Origin: Eledone cirrhosa
Taxonomy: Eukaryota
DNA length: 64,000 nt
Reading direction: 5' to 3'
NCBI GenBank assembly: GCA_964016885.1
Contig: OZ024741.1
Coordinates: forward strand, 370,512,001-370,576,000
In this document: positions 4,833 through 50,972 of the stretch, piece by piece
Position numbering within the stretch: the stretch's first letter is position 1
How the letters are laid out: every line of letters starts with the position of its first letter
Notes under the pieces: generated by a model
Told to the model about the DNA's origin: nothing
Database searches by the model: none
Seen by the model: only the letters and a program-made list of their open reading frames with translations
Position numbers and translations under genes: made by a program

Positions 4833-5095
4833 AAATAAATAAAATAAAAATGGTGTAGACATTACAATACAATAGGAGGAAACATAATAGTACCACTGAT
4901 GATGTCGCAGATGTGCGACGAAAGAACTTTGAAAGACTATATATATGTATATTTATATCTGTATGTTTAACCGTTGGTCAATCAATGATAAACATTGATT
5001 GCCAAATAAATTAACTATAAAAGATACTGAAGCGAAAACCAACCCAAACCAAACAGTGAGTGTGTTCTGTTATTATTTCTGGCAATATTATAAGA

Positions 5096-10761: not shown

Positions 10762-10819
10762 AGAATTTTATTTCTCGCACTCGCACAGCTGATACATAAA
10801 TGTGTAGTTAAGAAATTCT

Positions 10820-11025
10820 ATATATTTTCAACCGTTCAACAGATTGGCAGAGGTATACAGTCCTGATGAATGGCGATGGCCCTGAAACATGTTGATTGTT
10901 CCTCAATGCCAGTGTTGAACAAATGGATGACGATTTGTCATCGGCAGAGCACAGCATTAATCGGGCCGTTTGTTTACAAACGAACCGAATGTTATTATTA
11001 ATATTTGATATAACCCATACGTACA
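10820..11025 (+). mobile_element. HHR repeat family B, divergent subfamily (hammerhead 10857-10899)
   Basis: ACAGUC-CUGAUGA-stem II (GGC/GCC)-GAAA, palindrome ACAUGU, U^GAUUGU; downstream GTTTGTTTACAAAC..CCCATACGTACA shared with copies at 38.4-38.75k, 40.2k, 46k and 50.5k. Confidence 0.8.
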
Positions 11026-11072
11026 TATGTATATGTATATATGTGGGTATGTATATATATATATATATATAT

Positions 11073-25482: not shown

Positions 25483-28400
25483 CTACAGAACAATGTAGAG
25501 AGAAGGCCCATTTACACGAGCCATTCTCGCTTCTTTCACCCACCTTTCATAAAACTGTCTGGGGCCAAGCACTTCTCTCTCCATCCTGATCCTTCTTCCG
25601 AAGTAGTATCGGAAGAAGTAAACCAGGTGTTGGCCGGAGAGAAAGTCACCCGACCTCAGACCTTTCAGGCGCGTCCACCACACAACCTCTTTCATCATGG
25701 CTATTACGCACAGAAAGACCGCCCCTGCTTCATTTCTGAAGGGAGGAGGCGGCTTGATGTTCACCACAGACTCGGCGGCCAATCGAATCGGCGCCACACG
25801 CGACAGCAGTCGTTCGACGTAGCCCCACAGATCGGCAACGCCCGGGCAGTGTACTAGTGCGTGCGCAACGGTTTCCTCGTCGCGCACGCATCTGGGACAG
25901 ATCTTTTTCGCGGGATCCCTGACCGGGCGCCCGTGTCTGTAGAGCTTTTCTCGAACGGGCAGAGCCCCCCGGTAGCACTGCCAAGCTAGGGTCCTCTGGA
26001 AGTTGTCCATGGGTCCCGGGCCGAAAGTTCTACCGAACAGGCTGGCCAGTTCGTCCTCCTCCATGCCTAGCGACTCTCCAAGGGTGTCGTCGCCCCTGCT
26101 AGCCACCAGCCCTCTATAGAATGTCGAGGTGGATTCTCCACTGATAGTCGGGTCCGCTTGCCAGAGAGCCGTGAGTGCCTGGGCACACTCGGTGTGCCAG
26201 TTGCCCAGTTTTCTCGGTCTTTGCTTCACCCAGGATTGCAGCTCGGTGAGCGAGACGAGTTGTGGGAAGGCTCGCCTCACAAACGGGGCCCACACCGGCT
26301 GACCGGTGAGGAATACCTGTAGATGCCGTAGCCTCAATGCGTGCCTACGCATCAACAGCCACGGCATACCCAGCCTTCCTTTCGAAGGGTGCTGACAGCA
26401 GATGGACCTCCTCACCATGGGAGGCCGCTTCTTCCAGAGGAACTGGAAGAGCATGCGCTCCATGATGGTGAGCGTTTCCTTGGGGCAAGGCACGACGGTC
26501 AGGCGGTAGTAGATGACGGACGCTATGTAAGCGTTCGTCACCTCCGCCCGACCTTTCAGTGATAGTTTGCACTTGGCCCACTTCTGGGTCAGCACAAACA
26601 CCCTGCTCGTCACCTCACCCCAATTCTTCTCCACCTGGAGATCCGGTCCGAACCAGACGCCGAGCAGCTTCACCGGGCCCTCCGTCCACCGCCCGACGAC
26701 ACCGTCTAGCGGCATCGGTTTGCCCCTCCACGTTCCGAGTTGCAAACCGACTGACTTGTCCCGGTTCAGCCTAGCCCCCGTCAGCCTTTCGTATTTCTCC
26801 AGTAGGGTGGCGATCGCCCCGATTTCTGAGGCGTCCGCCACCATTACTGTTACGTCGTCGGCATAGGCCGAGACCGCTTTGTGCAATCCCGGTTCCAGGG
26901 GTATGCCCCGCAGCAATTCGAACTTCCGCAGCAGTGGCTCGAGAGCCAATACGTACATAAGGGAGGAGAGGGGCACCCCTGCCTGATGGACCGGGTGATT
27001 TGAAACGGCTCCGAGAGGTAGCCGTTTACTTTAACCCTAGAGCAGACGTTGCCACTGTGCATGGCAGAAATCCAGCCCCTGAAAACGGGTCCGAAGGCCG
27101 CCACCGCTAGCACCGCATTCAGGTAACCATGGTCGACCCTATCGAACACCTTTGATTGATCCAAGTTGATCAGGGCCCCACCAAAGCCGGGTTCGTTCCC
27201 AACCCTCTCTACGATGTATCGCATGAGGTGGAGGTTGTCGTGAATGGATCTGGACGGGATAGCGCATGTCTGCGCGTCTCCCACCAAACCACCCACCACA
27301 AACGCCAACCTCTTCGCCAACACCTTGGCCAAAATCTGTAACTCTGCATTCAGCAGAGTTATGGGCCTAAAGTTACTTAAGTCGTCCCCCTTGCTCTCGT
27401 CCTTCCTCACTAGCGTGACTACGCCCTTGGTCACAGAACAGGGAATTCTCCCGTTCTGTTGCCAGTTGCAATAGACAGCCTCGAGGAGTTCGGAGAACGA
27501 GACCGGCATAGCTAAATAAAGTTCGTATGGTAGACCATCGAGACCCGGAGATTTGCGTCTGCTGCATTGGCTGAGCGCTTCACCGATTTCAGTGGCTGTG
27601 ATTGGCCTTTCGCAGCAATCCGCTTCACCGCTCGAAAGACGCGGTAGACCGTCGAGGTGTGGACCGAAGTCCACATCCACGTCCGGCCCCCCGGCCCCTC
27701 CGAACAGTCGAGCAAAGTGCCTTTGAAAGGCCTCGCACATCCGCTCAGGTTCAAGGATCACCCGTCCATCCTGGTCTCGCAAAGACCGAATGGTGGATTT
27801 AATCCCACTCTTGGCTTCTGTCACGCGGGCCCAGCTAACAGCTTTGGTCCCCTCGTTTCCTAAAGCACGTATTTTACTTCGGACAACGCAGCCTTCGTGC
27901 TTCGCGTCAAAGAACTGGCTCAACGCCGTTCTCGACGCTAACACTCTGGCCACGTCTCCGCTCCTAATCGCCTCTTCTAGTTTATCTGTTAACTCCCTTT
28001 CCTTCCTATTTCTATTCGCCGCTAGTTCCTTACTGTAACCTATCGAACTTACTTTAATCTATCTCTTTAGAGATACCCACCACCTGCTGTTGACGATCGC
28101 TCCCGTCAACCGCATCTTAACTAAGCTACTAATCCGGTTCCTGTAAGCTTCCTTTGCCGGCAAGGACAAGTTCATCTTCCAGTAACCGGGACCCTGTCTA
28201 TGCGTTCTATCAAGGTTGACCACGCAGGTCACTAATTTGTGATCTGAATAGCCAACCATGAGCAATTCTGGACAACTAAATACGTCCCTATCCTTACTCC
28301 TAACCAAAAACCTATCTAGGTACGATCTAGATTGACCACTGAGGTTTGCCCAGGTCCAGGTTGGCACAGTTGGAAAATCTAGTCGAAATCTATCGACCAG

Positions 28401-28910
28401 GTCGAATCGATGGAGTAACCCCTTGAGGCTGCTACACCCCCCTCTATCGGGACATGCCACTGCATAGTCCCAACGCGCATCTAGGATTCCATTCCAGTCC
28501 CCCACTAAAAGCAGGGAACGCGACGTTCCTAGAAAAGTCTCCAGACGCTGGAAGAAGTCGGCTCTTTCAGCCCCGAAGGGGGCATAAAGACCGACCAGTC
28601 TGAAAGCCCCGCCTTCACCGCCTCCGACGTCCAGCACCAGTAATCGACCCCCCGGGTCCGAGTGAACAATCTGTACTTCGAGAGCCAAACGTTTATCCAG
28701 CAGTACGGCAATCCCACCCCCGCCTCCGGGTTGACAGAGAGATGCGTGCATCTGAAAGTCATCGAAGGCGGGAGCCAGCTGTCGCACGCTGCTGATCCGA
28801 CTCTCGCAAACAACCATCACATCTATACTTCGTGACCTGAGGTCACTTAGAAGCTTTGCTTGCTTCCAAGCTGAGCCCAGGCCACGCGCATTCAAACAGC
28901 CAACTCTCAA
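25483..28910 (-). pseudogene. ORF2 (APE-RT-CCHC), disrupted
   Basis: GDWN/YLDR/SDH endonuclease motifs, YADD, CPRC..H..HC; nonsense GAG>TAG at ~28059 and 1-nt deletion at ~26970. Confidence 0.95.
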
Positions 28911-28915
28911 TAGAT

Positions 28916-30750
28916 CTATTTTGGTGTTGAAAGTGAAGAAAGAAAAGCACCTATCTCTCCGGGTTGTGTAATTTCCATGGGGTCGGGTGTGTTGGGTGGA
29001 GGGATGTTTTGTGGTGGTGTGGGGGTATCCGAGTGTGGTGGGGTTGGGGTATTTGGAGTTGTGTCAGGGAGAGGGGAGGTTATGGGGAAATCTTTCAAGA
29101 GGACGCGATTTAACGGTTTTAAACAGGGGGGCTCACGTCCTGTTTAAATTGTTCTTTTAAGGAACGATAAAGGTCCAGAGGGACCTTTATCATTTTTAAA
29201 TGGGTAAAGTTCTCTGTTGAGATAAAGTTTGGCCCTTCGGTCTGCACCAAAGGGCTATTGTTTATTAATTTAAACAGTTTTTTGTTTTCTTTATTTATAT
29301 ATGTGTATTGCAAAGTCTTTTTTTGTGATGCTGTCAATGTTTCGAAGAGGGGAGGCGCAGATTTATTTTTGTTTGTCGAGGGTGGGGTGTTTTTGATTGG
29401 AGTTGGTGTTTGTGTGTGGGTTATTTGTTGTTGTGGTGTGCTGGGTGTGTGCTTTCGTTTTTTTCTTTTAACTTGTCTGAAGGCTTCTCCTCCTTCTTCT
29501 TCAGAAGTTGGGGGAAACTCTTCAGCGCTAGGTGGGAGGGACGTGGTGTCTGGTTGTTTCTTTTTGCGGGAGGGGTAGATTTGTTGCTGTATTTTTTATT
29601 ATTAGTTTGGAATGTGTTTTGTGGTGGTGGTGGTGATGTTTGTGTCGTGCTTGTGGTTGGTGATGGTGGTGGTGATGTTTGTGTTGTGGTTGGTAATGGT
29701 GGTGGTGATTTTTGTGTCGTGCTTGTGTTTGGTGCTGGTGGTGGTGATGTTTGTGTTGTGCTTGTGGTTGGTGGTGTCTGTATTTTGTTTGCTGTGTGTG
29801 GTATTAGTGTATTTTTGGAGGTGGGTGGTGTTGGTGTACTGTTTGTGGTGGGTGTGGGCAATAGTCCTTTTTGGGGGATACGATTCGGGCAGTTAGCCTT
29901 AACGTGTCCCCTTTCCATGCGTGAATAGCATGCTCGTCTTCTCCCCTCTACAATTATATATATTGGGGTAAGGTCATCCAGCCAGATGCGATCCGGGATT
30001 TGCGCTATTCTTTCGGGCCTCATTTGGACTAGTAGGTCGAGGCCCATTCCCAGGAACGCATCTCCAGATGCCTTCCCCATTGACAGCACTGTGTCCTCGC
30101 CCATGTCTATGAAGCCAGCAATAGCCCACCAGAAGTCCATTGTGGGCAGCATTGTCTGTATTTTGACTCTCTGAGTTCTTCTACCCATGTAGGTGGGATA
30201 GAAACTGTAGAGTGGGCTTAGGGAAAGCCTCTGTGCTGTTTCCTTGTCTTTTGTTAAAACCGAAATGCTGCCATAGAGTCGGTCCTTTCGTATGAAGAGA
30301 ATATTCTTCATATAGTCTTTTAGGACCAACTCTATCTCCATTTGGCTGTGCTGTGCTGGCTTTCTCGTGTGGTTTAGAATTGTTCTAAACAGAACAGTGT
30401 TTTCTAGTCTCGTTTTCTTGAATTCTGGGGGGGAATTAATGGAAAACATTCCGTTCTCCCCCCAAGATTATGTGCTTTTTTGCTTCTGCCAATTTTTCTC
30501 TGGCGGCAGTCAAGTCAATAGGTGTATATATTATAGATTTTTTTGTTGTCTGGGCGAAAGTTGCCTTGTTGTTTTTTGTATTCTTATTTTCTGTTTGTTT
30601 GTTTTCCGTTTCTAATTTTCCGTAACATTTGTTTTTTTCATTTTCCTTGTTTGTTTCGTTGTCTAGTTTTGTTGTATCCATTTTTTGTTCTTCAGACTTG
30701 GGGGGCGTGGCAGAGCTAATGGCATACATGTCTGCCATCTTTCCCGCCAT
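28916..30750 (-). pseudogene. ORF1 (gag-like), frameshifted
   Basis: Four ORF fragments match the intact ORF1 of copy 2; zinc knuckle mutated (CYSR); 12-nt deletion (STTx segment missing). Confidence 0.9.
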
Positions 30751-31204
30751 GCGTCCAAGAAAGAAGTTTTACAGAAAAATAGTTATTTATTTTACCCCCT
30801 AAAAAGGGGGTAAATGTAAAAATGTTTCCCTAAATAACAGGGGTAAGTGTTCCAAATGTGTTGCACTGAAAACATTCACTGGTTCTTACTATAGTAAGGG
30901 TAAATTCCGATAGAATAGCAGAGCCGATGTGAAGCGTGTCTCACTCTATCAAGATAGATAGATAGATAGATAAATTTATATTTATTTTCCACGAGGGCAC
31001 AAAAGAAGGGGACATTTACACAGTGGGGGAGTTTACATAAATCGAGTAAAGAAAAAAGGAATAACAATAATAATATAACAATAAAAAGTCCTCAAAAGGG
31101 AGGGGGCGTGTTGGGGATTGCACATACCCCCGAAAAGTGTGCAACTCTTTTCGCGGGGGAAGCCCAGAGAGGAGGCGCTCCCCCTTTCCTCTTCACTTCT
31201 TCAC

Positions 31205-34200
31205 CTACAGAACAATGTAGAGAGAAGGCCCATTTACACGGGCCATTCTCGCTTCTTTCACCCACCTTTCATAAAACTGTCTGGGACCAAGCACTTCTCT
31301 CTCCATCCTGATTCTTCTTCCGAAGTGGTATCGGAAGAAGTAAACCAGGTGATGGCCGGAGAGAAAGTCACCCGACCTCAGACCTTTCAGGCGCGTCCAC
31401 CACACAACCTCTTTCATCATGGCTATTACGCACAGAAAGACCGCCTCTGCTTCATTTCTGAAGGGATGAGGTGGCTTGATGTTCACCACAGACTCGGCGG
31501 TTAATCGAATCGGCGCCACACGCGACAGCAGTCGTTCGACGTAGCCCCACAGATCGGCAACGCCCGGGCAGTGTACCAGTGCATGCGCAACGGTTTCCTC
31601 GTCGCGCACGCATCTGGGACAGATCTTTTTCGCGGGATCCCTGCCCGGGCGCCCGTGTCTGTAGAGCTTTTCTCGAACGGGCAGAGCCCCCCGGTAACAC
31701 TGCCAGGCTGGGGACCTCTGGAAGTTGTCCATGGGTCCCGGGCCGAAAGTTCTAACGAACAGGCTGGCCAGTTCGTCCTCCTCCATGCCTAGCGACTCTC
31801 CAAGGGTGTGGTCGCCCCTGCTAGCCACCAACCCTCTATAGAATGTCGAGGTGGATTCTCCACTGACAGTCGGGTCCGCTTGCCAGATAGCCTTGAGCGC
31901 CTGGGCACACTCGGTGTGCCAGTTGCCCAGTTTTCTCGGTCTTTGCTTCACCCAGGATTGCAGTTCGGTGAGCGAGACGAGCTGTGGGAAGGCTCGCCTC
32001 ACAAACGGGGCCCACACCAGCTGACCGTTGAGGAATACCTGTAGATGCCGTAGCCTCAAAGCGTGCCTACGCATCAACAGCCACGGCATACCCAGCCCTC
32101 CTTTCGAAGGGTGCTGGCAGCAGATGGATCTCCTCACCATGGGAGGCCGCTTCTTCCAGAGGAACTGGAAGAGCATGCGTTCCATGATGGTGAGCTTTTC
32201 CTTGGGGCAAGGCACGACGGTCAGGAGGTAGTAGATGACGGACGCTATGTAAGCGTTCGTCACCTCCGCCCGACCTTTCAGTGATAGTTTGCACTTGGCC
32301 CACTTCTGGGTCAGCGCAAACACCCTGCTCGTCACCTCGCCCCAATTCTTCTCCACCTGGAGGTCCGGTCCGAACCAGACCCCGAGCAGCTTCACCGGGC
32401 CCTCCGTCCACCGCTCGACGACACCGTCTAACGGCATCGGTTTGCCCCTCCACGTTCCGAGTTGCAAACCGACTGACTTGTCCTGGTTCAGCTTAGCCCC
32501 CGTCAGCCTTTCGTATTCCTCCAGTAGGGTGGCGATCGCCCCGATTTCCGAGGCGTCCGCCACCATTACTGTTACGTCGTCGGCATAGGCCGAGACCGCT
32601 TTGTGCAATCCCGGTTCCAGGGGTATGCCCCGCAGCAACTCCAACTTCCGCAGCAGTGGCTCGAGAGTCAATACGTACAGAAGGGAGGAGAGGGGGCACC
32701 CCTGTCTGATGGATCGGGTGATTTGAAACGGCTCCGAGAGGTAGCCGTTTACTTTAATCCTAGAGTAGATGTTGCCACTGTGCATGGCAGAAATCCAGCC
32801 CCTGAAAACGGGTCCGAAGCCCGCCGCCGCTAGCACCGCATCCAGGTAACCATGGTCGACCCTATCGAACGCCTTAGATTGATCCAAGTTGATCAGGGCC
32901 CCACCAAAGCCGGGTTCGTAGCCAACCCTCTCTATGATGTATCGCATGAGGTGGAGGTTGTCGTGAATGGACCTGGACGGGATAGCGCATGTCTGCGCGT
33001 CTCCCACCAAACCACCCACCACAAGCGCCAACCTCTTCGCCAACACCTTGGCCAAAATCTGTAACTCTGCATTCAGCAGAGTTATGGGCCTAAAGTTACT
33101 TAAGTCGTCCCCCTTGCTCTCGTCCTTCCTCACTAGCGTGACCACGCCCTTGGTCACAGTACAGGGAATTCTCCCGTTCTGTTGCCAGTTGCAATAGACA
33201 GCCTCGAGGAGTTCGGAGAACAAGACCGGCATAGCTAAATAAAGTTCGTATGGTAGACCATCGAGACCCGGGGATTTGCGTCTGCTGCATTGGCTGAGCG
33301 CTTCCCCGATTTCAGTGGCTGTGATTGGCCTTTCGCAGCACTCCGCTTCGCCGCTCGAAAGACGCGGTAGACCGTCGAGGTATGGACCGAAGTCCACATC
33401 CCCGTCCGGCCCCCCGCCACCTCCGAACAGTCGAGCAAAGTGCCTTTGAAAGGTCTCGCACATTCGCTCAGGTTCAAGGATCACCCGTCCATCCTGGCCT
33501 CGCAAAGACCGAATGGTGGATTTAATCCCACTCTTGGCTTCTGTCACGCGGGCCCAGCTAACAGCTTTGGTCCCCTCGTTTCCTAAAGCACGTATTTTAC
33601 TTCGGACAACGCAGCCTTCGTGCTTCGCGTCAAAGAACTGGCTCAATGCCGTTCTCGTCGCTAACACTCTGGCTACGTCTCCGCTCCTAATCGCCTCTTC
33701 TAGTTTATCTGTTAACTCCCTTTCCCTCCTATTTCTATTCGCCGCTAGTTCCTTACTGTAACCTATCGAACTTACTCTAATCTCTCTCTTTAGAGATATC
33801 CACCACCTACTGTTGACGATCGCTCCCGTCAACCGCATCTTAACTAAGCTACTAATCCGGTTTCTGTAATCTTTCTTTGTCGGTAAGGACAAGTTCATCT
33901 TCCAGTAACCGGGACCCTGTCTATGCGTTCTATCAAGGTTGACCACGCAGGTCACTAATTTGTGATCTGAATAGCCAACCATGATCAGTTCTGGACAACT
34001 AAATACGTCCCTATCCTTACTCCTAACCAAAAACCTATCTAGGTACGATCTAGATTGTCCACTGCGGTTTGCCCAGGTCCAGGTTGGCGCAGTTGGACAA
34101 TCTAGTCGAAATCTATCGACCAGGTCGAATCGATCGAGAAACCCCTTGAGGCTGCTACACCCCCCTCTATCGGGACATGCCCCTGCATAGTCCCAACGCG

Positions 34201-34634
34201 CATCTAGGATTCCATTCCAGTCCCCCACTAAAAGCAGGGAACGCGACGTTCCTAGAAAAGTCTCCAGACGTTGGAAGAAGTCGGCTCTTTCCGCCCCGAA
34301 GGGAGCATAAAGACCGACCAGTCTGAAAGCCCCGCCTTCACCGCCTCCGACGTCCAGCACCAGTAATCGACCCCCCGGGTCCGAGTGAACAATCTGTACG
34401 TCGAGAGTCAGACGTTTATCCAGCAGTACGGCAACTCCCCCCCCCGCCTCCGGGTTGACAGAGAGATGCGTGCATCTCAAAGTCATCGAAGGCGGGCGCC
34501 AGCTGTCTCACGCTGCTGATCCGACTCTCGCAAACAACCATCACATCTATACTTTGTGACCTGAGGTCACTTAGAAGCTTTGCTTGCTTCCAAGCTGAGC
34601 CCAGGCCACGCGCGTTCAAACAGCCAACTCTCAA
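31205..34634 (-). CDS. ORF2: AP endonuclease + reverse transcriptase + C-terminal CCHC finger (~1142 aa if one G is removed from the run at 34437-34445)
   Basis: VGCLNARG, GDWN, SYLDR, SDH; KSPGLDG, FRPITLLN, DQSKAFD, RQGCPLS, YADD; CPRC-x8-H-x4-C. Confidence 0.93.
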
Positions 34635-34639
34635 TTGAT

Positions 34640-36475
34640 CTATTTTGGTGTTGAAAGTGAAGAAAGAAAAGCACTTACCTCTCCGGGTTGCGTAATTTCC
34701 ATGGCATCAGGTGTGATGGGTGGAGGGATGTTTTGTGGTGGTGTGGGGGTACACGTGTGTGGTGGGGTTGGGGTATTTGGAGTTGTGTCAGGGAGAGGGG
34801 CGGTTATGGGGAAATCTTTCAAGAGGACGCGATTCAACGGTTTTAAACAGGGGGGGCTCACGTCCCGTCTAAATTGTTCTTTTAAGGAACGATAAAGGTC
34901 CAGAGGGAACTTTATCATTTTTAAATGGGTGAAGTTCTCTGTTGAGATAAAGTTTGGCCCTTCGGTCTGCACCATAGGGTTATTGTTTATTAATTTAACC
35001 AGTTTTTTGTTTTCTTTATTTATATATGTGTATTGCAACGTCTTTTTTTGTGATGCTGTCAATGTTTCGGAGAGGGGAGGCGCAGATTTATTTTTGTTTG
35101 TTGAGGGTGGGGTGTTTTTGATTGGAGTTGGTGTTTGTGTGTGGGTTATTTGTGGTGTGCTGGGTGTGTGTTTTCTTTTTTTTCTTTTAACTTGTCTGAA
35201 GGCTTCTCCTCCTTCTTCTTCAGAAGTTGGGGGAAACTCTTCAGCGCTAGGTGGGAGGGACGTGTTGTGTGGTTGTTTTTTTTTTGCGGGAGGGGTAGAT
35301 TTGCTACTGTTTTTTTTATTATTTGTTTGGAATGGGTTTTGTGGTGGTGGTGGTGGTAATGTTTGTGTCGTGCTTGTGGTTGGTGATGGTGGTGGTGATG
35401 TTTGTGCTGTGGTTGGTGGTGGTGATTTTTGTGTCGTGCTTGTGTTTGGTGCTGGTGGTGGTGATGTTTGTGTTGTGTTTGTGGTTGGTGGTGTCTGTAT
35501 TTTGTTTGCTGTGTGTGGCATTAGTGTATTTTTGGAGGTGGGTGGTGCTGGTGTACTGTTTGTGGTGGGTGTGGGCAATAGTCCTTTTTGGGGGATACGT
35601 TTCGGGCAGTTAGCCTTAACGTGTCCCCTTTCCATGCATAAATAGCATGCTGGTCTTCTCCCCTCTACAATTATGTCTATTGGGGTAAGGTCATCCAGCC
35701 AGATGCGATCCGGGATTTGTGCTATTCTTTCGGGCCTCATTTGGACTAGTATGTCGAGGCCCATTCCCAGGAACGCATCTCCAGTTGCCTTCCCCATTGA
35801 CAGCATAGTGTCTTCGCCCATATCAATGAAGCCAGCAATAGCCCACCAGAAGTCCATTGTGGGCAGCATTGTTTTTACTTTTACTCTTTGTGTTCTTCTA
35901 CCCATGTAGGAGGGATAGAAGCTATATGTTGTCGACGAGAGTGGGCTTAGGGAAAGCTTCTCCGCCGTTTCTTTGTCTCTTGTTAGGACCGAAATGCTGC
36001 CATAGAGTCGGTCCTTTCGTATGAAGAGAATATTCTTCATATAGTCTTTTAGGACTAACTCTATTTCCATTTGGCTGGGCTGTGCTGGCTTTCTTGTCTG
36101 GTTCAGTATAGTTCTGTATAGAACTGTGTTTTCTGCTCTGGCTTTCTTGAATTCTGGGGGGGAGTTAATGGAAAACATTCCGTTCTCCCCCAAAACAATG
36201 TGTTTCTTTGCTTCGGCCAGTTTTTCTCTGGCGGCAGTTAGGTCAATTGGTGTGTATGTAATGGATTGTTTTGTTTTCTGGGCGAAAGTTGCCCTGTCGT
36301 TATTTGTATTATTTTCTGTTTGTTTGTTTTCTGTTTGCTCATTTTCCTTAACATTTGTTTTTTCATTTTGTTTGTTTGTTTCAATGTCTAATTTTGTTGT
36401 AATTATTTTTTGTTCTTCAGACTTGGGGGGCGTGGCAGAGCTAATGGCAGACATGTCTGCCATCTTTTCCGCCAT
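34640..36475 (-). CDS. ORF1 gag-like nucleic-acid-binding protein with CCHC zinc knuckle and Pro/Thr-rich repeats (~611 aa)
   Basis: CYLCMERGHVKANC = CX2CX4HX4C; ATG at 36475 matches the ATG of copy 1 at 30750; TT(Q/K)TSPPP-like repeats. Confidence 0.92.
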   Translation of the reverse strand: MAEKMADMSAISSATPPKSEEQKIITTKLDIETNKQNEKTNVKENEQTENKQTENNTNNDRATFAQKTKQSITYTPIDLTAAREKLAEAKKHIVLGENGMFSINSPPEFKKARAENTVLYRTILNQTRKPAQPSQMEIELVLKDYMKNILFIRKDRLYGSISVLTRDKETAEKLSLSPLSSTTYSFYPSYMGRRTQRVKVKTMLPTMDFWWAIAGFIDMGEDTMLSMGKATGDAFLGMGLDILVQMRPERIAQIPDRIWLDDLTPIDIIVEGRRPACYLCMERGHVKANCPKRIPQKGLLPTPTTNSTPAPPTSKNTLMPHTANKIQTPPTTNTTQTSPPPAPNTSTTQKSPPPTTAQTSPPPSPTTSTTQTLPPPPPQNPFQTNNKKNSSKSTPPAKKKQPHNTSLPPSAEEFPPTSEEEGGEAFRQVKRKKRKHTPSTPQITHTQTPTPIKNTPPSTNKNKSAPPLSETLTASQKKTLQYTYINKENKKLVKLINNNPMVQTEGPNFISTENFTHLKMIKFPLDLYRSLKEQFRRDVSPPCLKPLNRVLLKDFPITAPLPDTTPNTPTPPHTCTPTPPQNIPPPITPDAMEITQPGEVSAFLSSLSTPK

Positions 36476-36781
36476 GCTGCCAAGAAAGAAATTTTTCGGC
36501 AAAAATAGATATTTATTTTACCCCCTAAAAAGGGGGTAAATGCAAAAATGTTTCCCTAAATAACAGGGGTTAGTGTTCCAAATGTGTTGCACTAAAAAAT
36601 TTATCCGGTACTTACAATAGTAAGGGTAAATCCCGATGGAATAGCGGAGCCGATGCGAAGCGTGTCTTACTCTATCAAGATAGATAGATAGATATGTGTG
36701 CCTGTGTGTGGTTGTGTGCCTGTGTATAGGGGTGAGGAATATCATATATATGAGGAATTTACACACATATATATATATAAG

Positions 36782-38338: not shown

Positions 38339-38417
38339 AATTATGCACACGTACACACACATATATATAGACACACATATATATATATACATACACACAT
38401 ATATATACATATATATC

Positions 38418-38750
38418 AGTACGTATGGGTTATATCGATCATTAATAATTATTTCTACATTTGGCACAAGGCCAGCAATTATTCCAGTTACTGGTACTTT
38501 ATTTTATCGACCACGTAAGGATGAAAGGCAAAGTTGACCTCCGCGTGATTTGATCTCAGACTGTAAATGGCCGTAACTCTATGCTGAAAATCATGGCGTC
38601 CGATCCTCTACCGATACTGCCAATCCAATCGAACATTAATAATAATGTTTGATTCGTTTGTAAACAAACGGCCCGATTTCAAGCTGTGCCGGTGACCGAT
38701 CGTCACCTTTTTGTTCAACACTGGCTTTAAGGAACAATCAACATGTTTTT
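38418..38750 (-). mobile_element. Family B HHR repeat interrupted by a SINE (38446-38627)
   Basis: Reverse complement of 10885-11025; SINE flanked by the ATCGA(T/A)CATTAATAAT duplication. Confidence 0.8.
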
Positions 38751-38758
38751 AAGTCATT

Positions 38759-38941
38759 GTGGATTGGCAGTATCTGTAGAGGGTCGGACGCCATGCTTTC
38801 CAGCATAGAGTACGTCCCTTTACGATCTGAGTTCAAATCCCGCCGAGGTTGACTTTGCCTTTCATCCTTACGGGGTCGATAAAATAAAGTACCAGTAATG
38901 CACTGGGTAATTGCTGGCCTTGTGCATAAAGTAGAAACAAT

Positions 38942-39022: not shown

Positions 39023-39800
39023 AATCCTACCTAATGGCTCAGGATTGTGTACGGCATTATTTCCCACACAGTAGTGTTCACAATGTCCTTCTTCAAGCCT
39101 ACAAAGTTGACAGTACTTAGACTCGCACACTCCACTGTTGCCCTACACTTTACTGATCACCATTCCAGCACAGATTCCATCTTCGCACACCCCACAATCG
39201 CCCTACCCTTTATTGATAATCATTCCATCACACATTCGATCCTAATATCTCACCTTTTCAAAAGTCAATTCGACGTACATTTTGTTTCCTTCTTTTAGAC
39301 CCCACCACCTTCTCCATATCCTATGAGCGTCCTTTCCGCTCCTTTAAATACGCCCCTAAAATGCATGATCTCTTAATCCATAGCTCTTTTATTCCTTCTA
39401 ATACCTAACCTGGATCCTTCTCTAACTTCCGAATGTTTCCAACAGTCTCCCAACAACCGTAACACTACCTTCCTCCTTCGACTCAACCAGCACCCTTCTT
39501 ATCACAGATCCCTTCAATTGTACTACTAGAAATGTATTAAGCGTTTTTTCTGTGATCTCATATACATTGGTAAGACCGGCCACAGGTTAGCAGATCGTTC
39601 ATCTACGAGATATCCGCTGAAATAACACCGCATCACATGTTGCGCATCACATTACCATACCTTCTCACACTATTACCACCTCTCAGTCTGTTGTATTCCT
39701 TTGCACAACGGCGATAATGCTTTTCGCTGCCACATAAAACAACGTATTGTATTCCGCCTTAGTTGCTCTGTTCACGTTGGTATGAACAATGTAGTGATAT
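39020..39800 (+). pseudogene. Penelope-like element relic: RT thumb/linker and GIY-YIG endonuclease
   Basis: Frame-broken peptides SFKYAPKMHDLLIHSS, SFNCTTRNV, FCDLIYIGKTGHRLADR, SHVAHH, KQRIVFRL...GMN. Confidence 0.8.
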
Positions 39801-39879
39801 TTACCTAACTTTATCTAGAGCTGTCATCTCTCAATTCGGAGAAGTAGCGGCTCTATCAGGGGTGGCTCTCTGATCTCCG

Positions 39880-40117: not shown

Positions 40118-40572
40118 TTTCAAAGTATATACTTTCCTTGTGCATATTAACGGCTGAGTTAGTCGGCCGGGCGTACCGAAAACGATAAATGGAAAAAATG
40201 AAATTTCATTTCTCACTCTTAGTAAGGAAAGTATACACTTTCAAACGTTCAATCGACTGACAGGAAGGTATACGGTGCTGATGACAGCTAATAAGCTAGA
40301 AACTAGTTCAACGTTCCGTTGTCAGTGTTGAACAAAATGGCAACGATGGTTGCCGAATACTGTACGGCTAATTATTCGGGCTGTTTGTTTACAAACAAAC
40401 CGAGCATTATAATAAATGTTCGGTAAACCCATACGTACATATATATATATATGTGTGCATGTATGTATGTATATACATACCACTGTACGTATGTATACAT
40501 ATATGTATGTACGTATACATACTTATATTTAAGTATCAGCAGTACTAAGAGTAAGAAATGAAATTTCATTTT
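40118..40572 (+). mobile_element. Family B HHR repeat with an inverted partial copy; hammerhead 40272-40314
   Basis: ACGGUG-CUGAUGA-C-AGCU-AAUA-AGCU-A-GAAA, palindrome ACUAGU, U^CAACGU. Confidence 0.8.
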
Positions 40573-41214
40573 TTTTATATATATATAGTCAAAATGGAGA
40601 ATTTCAATGATCATATATAGTCAAAATGGAGAATTTCAAAATAAAAGTTTCATACGCTGTCATATTTTAGCCGGAGGTAAATATAGGAAGAGATACAGTC
40701 GATCATACGAATAAATGTTTTCTATTAAATTCACAATAAACCGACAAGTGTTCCGCTTATTCAATTATTATATAATAGACAGTAAATAAAAAGAAAATTA
40801 TATGATATATATATATTTCTCCTTCGAAACACCAACACTACCACAACCACTACCATAACTACACCCGCAAAAAATACCCTACTGCTGCTGCTTCTTTTTC
40901 TTCTTCTTCTTCTTCTTCTTCTTCTTCTTCTTCTTCTTCTTCTTCTTCTTCTTCTTCTTCTTCTTCTTCTTCTTCTTCTTCTTCTACCGCTGCTGCTGTA
41001 GTCTTTTGTTTTGTCAGTCGTTATTGCTGTTGTGTTTGTTAATAAATGATAAGTTCAGGAACAACTCGTCAAACTTACCTGCTACCTACCTGCCTACCTG
41101 CAGAACTACATACCTGTACATGTATGTATGTATGTATGTATGTATGTATGTATGTATGTATGTATGTATGTATGTATGTATGTATGTATGTGTGTATGTA
41201 TGTATATATGTATG

Positions 41215-45397: not shown

Positions 45398-45998
45398 TTT
45401 CAAGGCTACCAATATTCTGGTACGCTTTCGTCAGATAAAATACAATATTTAGTTTAAAGAGTTATGCGTGAATATAGATTTTGTTTACTTATGAAAACAG
45501 TTAGGATATGCCGAGCGAAGATATATGTCCATTTTCTATATATAGCTTAGGAATGTGAAAATAATTATATTTTCATAGAGAAGATGTATAATATTATGTA
45601 TAATCTATTATTGTATAAGGTTAGAAATATAAATTTAAACATTTATGTAAAGTTTGAATGTCTCGTATAGGTAAAATGTAAACAAGCATTTATCAAAGGA
45701 AAAGATAACTTTAATTTTTATTAATTTAGATAATTATTTAAAATATATCTAGCGTCTAAACTTAACGGCCCTTTTCAGTTTTAACGTTATCTTCATTAGC
45801 ATATTTATCCTGAGTTTTGAATATTTATTCACTATCTGCATTGAACTCAAAACGTTAAGTTCATATGTCGATATGTCACTATCTTTAAACTAAATATTGT
45901 ATTTTATCTGACGAAAGCGTACTAAATTACTGGTACCCTTGAAATATGTATAATAAAATAAGTATGCTTTTATAAAGATATTTTCCATTTATTAATAT
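45398..45998 (+). mobile_element. HHR repeat family G with an inverted copy; hammerhead 45901-45959
   Basis: AUUUUAU-CUGACGA-AAGCGUAC..GUACCCUU-GAAA-UAUGUAU-A^AUAAAAU; inverted arm at 45398-45460; tail recurs at 44678-44745 and 47970-48132. Confidence 0.75.
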
Positions 45999-46008
45999 TA
46001 TTTATATA

Positions 46009-46074
<66 letters not shown>

Positions 46075-46082
<8 letters not shown>

Positions 46083-46875
46083 TACATATTTATATATATA
46101 TATACGTACATACATATATGTATACAGACGTAGAGTAGTATGTATATATATATACATACATGCACACATATATATATGTACGTATGGATTTACCGAACAT
46201 TTATTATAATGCTCGGTTTGTTTGTAAACAAACAAACATCCCGAATTAAGCCGTACAGTGTTTAGCAACCATCGTTGCCCTTTTGTTCAACACTGACAAA
46301 GGAACGATGTACTAGTTTCAAGCTTATTAGCTATTGTCAGCACCGTATACCTTCCTGCCAGATGATTGAACGTCTGAAAGTATATACTTACCTTATGCAT
46401 ATTGACGGTTGAACAGCCTAATTTGCATATCGAGTGGGTTAATCGGCCGGGCGCACCGAAAACGATAAATGGAAAAAATGAAACGAAATTTCATTTATCA
46501 CTCTTAGTACGGCTGTTACTTAAATATAAGTATGTATACGTACATACATGTATGTATACAGACGTACAGTAGTATGTATATATATATACATACATGCACC
46601 CATATATATATGTACGTATGGATTTACCGAACATTTATTATAATGCTCGGTTTGTTTGTAAACAAACAAATATCTCGAATTAAGCCGTATAGTGTTTAGC
46701 AACCATCGTTGCCCTTTTGTTCAACACTGACAAAGGAACGATATACTAGTTTCAAGCTTATTAGCTATCGTCAGCAAGGTATACCTTCCTGCCAGATGAT
46801 TGAACGTCTGAAAGTATATACTTTCCTTATGTATATTAACGGCTGAGCAGCCTAATTTTCATATCAAATGAGTTA
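46075..46875 (-). mobile_element. Tandem family B HHR repeat, period 434 nt
   Basis: GATTTACCGA at 46187 and 46621; hammerheads at 46304-46346 (core CUGACAA, mutated) and 46738-46780. Confidence 0.85.
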
Positions 46876-46918
46876 TTATATTTCGTTCCTGAATTATTGG
46901 CAACATGACCCTCTCAAA

Positions 46919-46954
<36 letters not shown>

Positions 46955-47125
46955 AAAAAGGATGAAATCGAAAATGCAACTGGAGTCTTTTTAAGAATAT
47001 TTATTTGGAACCAAATAAATATTCTTAAAAAGACTCCAGCTGCATTTTCGATTTCATCTTTTTTCCTTATACTTTCAGTCGTGTAGAACATCTCGTTTTA
47101 TTTTTCATTTTGGAAAAAAACTCTC

Positions 47126-47249
<124 letters not shown>

Positions 47250-49498: not shown

Positions 49499-49717
49499 CA
49501 AAAAGTTATCGCATTATATAGCTGAATACAATAAATGTAATCTGAGTTTTTCGAATATTAATAATAATATTCGATTCATTTGCAATTATGCAAACAGCGA
49601 CTTTTAAGCCATATCAGTAGAATGAGCCCCTGATCAGCCAGCCTGCGAATATGCAAATCAGGCCGATCGGTCACTGTATATTTTAGAAAATATCATATAT
49701 TTTCACCAGCTCTGACA

Positions 49718-49800
49718 GTTGGCAGGTGAACAGCAAACTGCACTGATGAAGGGTAATAACCCAGAAACAGTAGTGTCTGCAGTTCTGTTTACATGCCAAC
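49718..49800 (+). ncRNA. Full type-I hammerhead ribozyme with extended, bulged stem I
   Basis: AACUGCA-CUGAUGA-A-GGGU-AAUA-ACCC-A-GAAA-CA-GUAG-UG-UC^UGCAGUU; stem I extends via GUUGGCA.GUGAACAG / CUGUUUAC.UGCCAAC. Confidence 0.85.
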
Positions 49801-49919
49801 ACAAGAGCAAGAATAATGATATGGCTTAAAAGAGGTTGTTTGCATAACTGCAAACGAATCGAATATTATTATTAATGTTCGAAACACTCAGATTACATAT
49901 ATATGTACATGTGTGTATA

Positions 49920-50029
<110 letters not shown>

Positions 50030-50480: not shown

Positions 50481-50510
<30 letters not shown>

Positions 50511-50511
<1 letters not shown>

Positions 50512-50972
50512 AATGGAAAAAATGAAACGAAATTTCATTTCTCACTCTTAGTACGGCTGTTACTTAAATATAAGTATTATACGTACATACATATATGTAT
50601 ACAGACGTTCAGTAGTATGTATATATATATATATATATATACATACAGGCACACATATATATATGTACGTATGGATTCACCGAACATTTATTATAATGCT
50701 CGGTATGTTTGTAAACAAACAACCCGAATTAAGCCGTACAGTGTCTAACAACCATCGTTGCTCATTTGTTCAACCCTGACAAAGGAATGCTGTACTAGTT
50801 TCAAGCTTATTAGCTATCGTCAGCAACGTATAACTTCCTGCCAGATGATTGAACGTCTGAAAGTATATACTTTCCTTATGCATATTAACGGCTGAGCAGC
50901 CTAATTTGCATATCGAGTGAGTTAATCGGCCGGGTATAGAAAACGATAAACGGAAAAAATGAAACGAAATTT
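50511..50972 (-). mobile_element. Family B monomer with terminal redundancy; hammerhead 50787-50829
   Basis: AAA(T/C)GGAAAAAATGAAACGAAATTT at both 50511 and 50948 (437-nt period). Confidence 0.85.

Follow-up and report, generated by a model that had tools for sequence, protein, structure and literature searches.

The window analysed here, a 64,000-nt stretch of DNA from Eledone cirrhosa, carries near 46 kb a tandem non-coding repeat with a hammerhead motif, and the question raised by this locus is how a unit that encodes no protein is copied and returned to the genome. Based on our data, the 434-nt repeat with its type I hammerhead (family B) is likely a retrozyme, which would borrow the RT and the GIY-YIG nuclease of Penelope-like elements (PLEs) for insertion into (TA)n.

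The flagged insertion is, as the first-pass annotation had described it, a head-to-tail tandem with a period of 434 nt, and its two units are 93% identical (Table 1). Its 5' end in the ribozyme sense is ragged and lies at unit position 76, whereas its 3' end is the fixed site B, without a tail and adjoining (TA)n. The downstream hammerhead reads CUGACAA in its core (G8A) and stem I of the upstream one is broken, so that consecutive complete hammerheads are absent from the tandem; the family letter at 46335 differs in contigs of run X1, possibly the window's own source. Since C3-G8 changes abolish cleavage in the experiments described in PMC11167929, the tandem would probably be unproductive. 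Judged from its letters, the two-unit copy is worn and probably itself dead, and the dimer cleavage considered in the first-pass annotation is unlikely at this locus. A tiny remnant of the two ends of another hammerhead family (46880-46925) directly abuts the 5' junction, and at 46950-47135 lies a very small insertion made of the end of an autonomous PLE in head-to-head arrangement, flanked by (TA)n runs and with the short end on one side and the tailed end on the other.

Table 1. Family B features in the window (positions of the window; strand refers to the ribozyme sense).
Feature	Position	Strand	Remarks
Whole insertion	46077..46875	-	1.8 head-to-tail units
Complete 434-nt unit	46083..46516	-	downstream unit in RNA sense
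5'-truncated unit, positions 76-434	46517..46875	-	
Type I hammerhead	46304..46346	-	core changed at 46335 (G8A); cut predicted after GUA, 46310/46309
Type I hammerhead	46738..46780	-	intact core; stem I with two mismatches; predicted cut 46744/46743
59-nt "tail", internal in the flagged insertion	46465..46523	-	between site B (46524) and site A (46465)
(TA)n flank at fixed 3' end	45995..46076	.	inferred target
Family B copy	50509..50972	-	hammerhead 50787-50829; spans positions 26-434 and then 1-52, up to site A in (TA)n
Head-to-head copy	40122..40576	.	plus arm 40223-40576 ending near site A; inverted arm 40122-40227
Hammerhead in plus arm of 40122..40576	40272-40314	+	GUU site
Subfamily B2 copy	10800..11070	+	hammerhead 10857-10899, GUU site
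Subfamily B2 remnant	38339..38770	-	no core left; interrupted at about 38453-38629 by another repeat
Subfamily B3 copy with inverted arm	49500..49993	+	hammerhead 49737-49783, GUC site

The related copies already noticed at 10.8k, 38.3-38.75k, 40.1-40.6k and 50.5-51.0k are all real, but the list lacked one more, a seventh and more distantly related copy of subfamily B3 at 49.5-50.0k, with a GUC site and a stem III that is 10 nt long and near-palindromic. By motif scan, the copies at 46k and 50.5k carry the hammerhead in minus orientation and those at 10.9k, 40.3k and 49.7k in plus orientation. The claim that CUGANGA and GAAA are kept in most copies is correct for the majority state of three subfamilies, but both are lost in the 38.4k copy (no CUGANGA, AAAA in place of GAAA, and an interruption by another repeat) and the 46.3k core carries the G8A change. 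The genome to which the window belongs (contig C2) is 3.0 Gb in size and rich in microsatellites; the 32-nt core pattern occurs in it 11,918 times without mismatch (reversed control: 0) and the pattern of the 10.8k subfamily 145 times (control: 0). Among 236 sampled copies the mean divergence from the majority sequence is 5%.

Besides family B, the window holds several other repeats. In B2 and B3 copies, the conserved AT hairpin has more than once been the insertion point of an abundant SINE-like repeat (38453-38629 and 38770-38930 in the window, and loci L216 and L222). Two LINE-type elements with endonuclease, RT and zf-RVT stand in tandem at 25483-36517 on the minus strand; one has an open frame of 1100 aa and the other is split over frames. 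Further hammerhead-like motifs of unrelated families lie at 4888, 7366, 45900, 45442 (-), 62973, 24251, 19916 (-) and 20771; those at 45900 and 45442 match the motif upstream of the ORF of one PLE family, and those at 4888 and 7366 recur in other loci.

Evidence for a working RNA fold comes from the comparison of subfamilies, with majority states built from 202 B1-type, 31 B2 and 33 B3 copies. The three lineages are 68-76% identical to each other over about 260 nt, and CUGANGA and GAAA are common to their majorities, as are a GUH site (GUA or GUU, GUU, and GUC, respectively), a stem I of 6 bp that resumes past a 3-nt bulge, a stem II of 4 bp resting on a mismatch, and a stem III that is palindromic (6, 6 and 10 nt in B1, B2 and B3). 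Across the subfamilies the stems vary more than their surroundings with pairing retained. The stem I and stem III sequences were quoted correctly in the first-pass annotation, and its expectation of covariation is borne out in an alignment of 25 B1/B2 rows (21 distinct): 95.5% of 336 cells are paired, against 31-49% in controls with slid partners, and 7 of 16 pairs show double changes. Although 0 of 500 shuffles reach the covariation score, the relatedness of the copies inflates this test and we therefore put the weight of the covariation at about ten independent pair changes; the rows represent essentially two lineages plus variants, with few independent events. B3 was omitted from the pair count because the first MAFFT alignment misplaces it; this third lineage retains every stem I pair with new sequence. 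In stem I of B1, U.G occurs in 64 and G.U in 43 of 120 copies, G/G in none. The GGC/GCC version of stem II, on the other hand, turned out to be decay in the 10.8k copy, since the majority of the 31 subfamily copies is GGGU/ACCC.

The selection for catalysis that had been proposed finds support for the source templates, in the covariation and in a deficit of core substitutions, but not for the copies themselves, which decay. In 206 copies chosen by their ends and not by the ribozyme, 34 core substitutions were counted against 56.5 expected (site-resampling p=0.03), which lends weak support to an intact core being required in source RNAs; all 11 core letters plus H17 are present in 162 of these 206. 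The layout is not that of a "minimal" hammerhead, as first described, but fits the canonical metazoan type I given in PMC4209133 (helix I of 6 bp, helix II of 4 bp, helix III of 2 bp with a palindromic loop), with the same helix sizes in family B. It differs from the min-HHR of PLE end repeats, described there as having a long helix II and a short helix I, also in that helix I continues after the 3-nt bulge into a long rod. The U.U mismatch at the base of helix II resembles the published axolotl HHR_Amex2, and catalytic activity may be low because of this mismatch. The calculated duplex energies of the palindromes range from -4.6 to -8.8 kcal/mol. A search for the Rfam hammerhead gave no match at gathering score and none among the best 150 of 232 weak hits. 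Further, a hairpin at about unit positions 295-320 is retained in all three subfamilies, preceding site B by about 100 nt in B1 and B2 and by 20 nt in B3, and is a candidate protein-recognition element. In the hammerhead motifs of two PLE families (L311, L313), UUGANAA replaces CUGANGA, which is the U3-A8 variant of PMC4209133.

The route into the genome can be read from the insertion ends. In the ribozyme sense there are two fixed 3' ends, 59 nt apart and followed by (TA)n: site B at about unit position 427 and site A at position 52 of the following unit. Genome-wide we counted 3,281 exact A ends and 2,593 exact B ends (controls: 0); in 3,201 cases the sequence passes an internal site A and goes on into the next unit. 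ATAT follows 93 of 100 A ends, the first A being forced by the search pattern, and run X1 contigs show TA-bearing loose ends at 46465 and 46524. For closer inspection the first 100 A ends and the first 90 B ends (89 scored) on contig C1 were taken; both samples come from the same part of this contig and have some insertions in common, so they are not independent. The 5' ends in these samples are ragged, with arm lengths from 39 to over 1,500 nt, and cluster at an AT-rich palindromic tract, which is partly alignment ambiguity. Any target-site duplication would be masked by the (TA)n flanks.

A head-to-head inverted arm is present in 45 of 100 A-anchored and in 53 of 89 B-anchored insertions, and its end follows a nearly strict rule. 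The partner of an A-anchored arm ends at B in 37 cases, at A in one and elsewhere in seven; the partner of a B-anchored arm ends at A in 43 cases, at B in two, elsewhere in seven and off limit in one. With independent choice between ends that are about equally common, about half of the pairs should be like-with-like. In 19 of 37 cases the inverted arm is too long to be a fold-back copy of the direct arm; for these a fold-back origin was rejected, and both arms were therefore copied from RNA.

An inverted 5' arm, a one-sided tail, an AT-rich target and 5' truncation are thus all present in family B, and the inverted end repeat and the tail on one end are marks of PLEs (PMC3846280, PMC8557442). 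The partial tandems, head-to-head inverted 5' arm, one-ended tail and AT-rich target are shared with the endonuclease-bearing PLEs of these descriptions, from which family B departs in lacking an ORF, in a tail of 59 nt instead of 30-40, and in a pairing of tailed and untailed ends that is near-obligatory where they call it optional. In vitro, a PLE protein starts within the RNA at two neighbouring sites and extends each of the two target strands (PMC11167929), and the 3' ends of family B, likewise internal, lie downstream of the hammerhead as those start sites do. The in vitro account reports no strand difference in start-site use, in contrast to the strict A-B pairing seen here.

With insertion by a PLE enzyme as our preferred reading, two forms of the copied RNA fit the data. 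Of the arms extending as far as the first predicted cut site, 1 of 64 (A sample) and 0 of 69 (B sample) end at it, and 1 of 12 and 0 of 11 end at the second. A pile-up of 5' ends at the cut site, considered as a sign of in vivo cleavage, is absent from both samples. Copying runs through the predicted cut site in 131 of 133 first crossings, and the template was therefore circular or an uncut multimeric RNA; 51 of 100 A-anchored arms are longer than unit plus tail. We give a circle even odds of being the copying template. It is also quite possible that the same element, with the same PLE help, is copied from an uncut linear multimer transcribed from tandem arrays, no circle being involved and the ribozyme being retained for another step or as a protein-binding fold; this disputes the circle step alone. 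Such a template agrees equally well with arms that almost never halt at the cut site, and also with the use of unprocessed RNA by the PLE in vitro, where the ribozyme was dispensable for insertion (PMC11167929). Arrays that could supply uncut RNA do exist, with 4 to at least 43 units and mostly intact cores, the longest one at C1:51.77-51.79 Mb (L441, L442; at least 43 units). Neighbouring units of this long array, however, differ mostly by 2-6% already before further decay, whereas within insertions direct repeats are no more divergent than overlapping inverted arms (4.2% vs 4.3%). Rare variants are common to repeats within one insertion in 17% of direct and 16% of inverted cases compared with 1.4% of random pairs, which fits recopying of one RNA; a few near-identical repeat pairs are later DNA duplications. 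The linear template also has against it the retention of core and stems across lineages that are 68-76% identical, and the accumulation of related animal retrozymes as circles (PMC7229834). Some arrays contain two-unit higher-order repeats with a next-but-one difference of 0%; the arrays reveal another way of growing, at the level of DNA, and could also have supplied linear multimers.

That an autonomous PLE left these copies behind as stubs of its end repeat (pLTR), truncated at the 5' end, seems improbable to us, even though every insertion mark is PLE-like and the PLE families inspected are a sample. The unit closes on itself head-to-tail and contains no long non-repetitive reading frame and no RT + GIY-YIG ORF, the sequence continues past site A to the following unit in thousands of cases, and the six PLE families checked carry different hammerheads of their own at a fixed place. 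No recurring coding region was found next to family B, into which 0 of 189 end-anchored insertions and 0 of 60 other loci continue, and among 130 PLE loci, a sample of the genome's PLE families, family B is the end repeat of none. The original proposal of a retrozyme or Penelope-pLTR family is thus supported by the covariation and the PLE insertion marks, and it is sharpened in that family B is a stand-alone unit and not the end repeat of any PLE locus in this sample. That family B is a satellite spread by DNA-level recombination with a fossil ribozyme is highly improbable and largely refuted by the end structure: the higher-order repeats do indicate DNA-level growth, but most copies are dispersed insertions of one or two units that have fixed 3' and ragged 5' ends as well as paired inverted arms, and the compensatory changes point to a working RNA fold in the source lineage.

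A retrozyme of this kind would need a helper. PLE families are numerous in the genome, and in some of them the RT + GIY-YIG frames are open; intact RT + GIY-YIG PLEs have the same two-end, (TA)n habit. Of 189 inner flanks, 11 match our PLE library, and no family clearly recurs. A single chimera (L010/L446) makes P1, an intact PLE family (713 aa), a candidate helper: here a near-complete P1 element ends at its short site in (TA)n and joins a family B arm without a TA spacer; opposite this arm, in head-to-head orientation, lies a second one that ends near site A, so that the chimera obeys the A-B rule across two RNAs. Within the window, a degenerate PLE end (39040-39810, +), whose GIY-YIG-like stretch is interrupted by stops and frameshifts, was dismissed as a parent, since it lies about 300 nt away and no sequence in common was seen. 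PLE fragments beside copies in L014, L025, L032 and L040 were likewise discarded as a link, because short TA runs or other repeats intervene, and we read them as a common target preference.

For the retrozyme with a borrowed PLE machinery, the following cycle may be envisaged. Tandem copies or long arrays would be transcribed into multimeric RNA, in which neighbouring hammerheads, as predicted from characterised animal retrozymes, would pair via their palindromic stem III and cut after GUA, GUU or GUC, and the unit would be ligated to a circle. The PLE protein would nick (TA)n, and reverse transcription would presumably be primed inside the RNA at the two fixed sites, some 220 and 280 nt 3' of the cut site, each serving one target strand; the two ends and their pairing are read directly from the insertions. 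Each cDNA would run a variable length through the ribozyme junction, consistent with the observed read-through, and the pair would be joined head-to-head or to the flank. Inserted copies would then decay, as the copies here do, and a few expand into long arrays at the DNA level, as observed. More speculatively, and in our view rather doubtful as a whole, a PLE dimer might copy the ribozyme-made circle, priming one target strand at site A and the other at site B, always one of each, and roll through the ligated junction, with P1 as helper, as suggested by the chimera, in which the P1 arm has no tail and the retrozyme arm is the tail-side one.

Family B shares with animal non-LTR retrozymes, as described in PMC7229834 and 10.64898/2026.07.22.740005, a short tandem unit that is non-coding, low in GC and equipped with a single type I hammerhead, the range from monomers to long arrays and the co-existence with PLEs, and like them it is strongly self-paired (z -3.9 without the AT tract). 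Its 434 nt are slightly more than the 170-400 nt quoted there, and it differs from these retrozymes in having no matching pLTR among the PLE loci sampled. We found no publication on family B; the supplements of both papers may list it. On all features testable from sequence, it is likely a previously undescribed member of the known non-LTR retrozymes.

The retrozyme class and its hammerhead are already known, and the return route into the genome has until now been argued from co-occurrence and kinship: mobilisation by PLEs was proposed from co-occurrence and phylogeny in accounts whose accessible text leaves the insertion ends undescribed (PMC7229834; 10.64898/2026.07.22.740005). In family B the footprint of PLE integration is visible on a protein-free hammerhead repeat, with start sites at the nucleotide level, and this is more direct evidence of PLE mobilisation; in addition, the near-obligate A-B pairing is sharper than the published "optional tail". 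An in vitro test with a PLE protein, unit RNA and (TA)n DNA is therefore well defined. If the ordered two-site priming on the circle were true, it would tie retrozyme circles to PLE enzymes and would account for the one-sided tail of PLEs.
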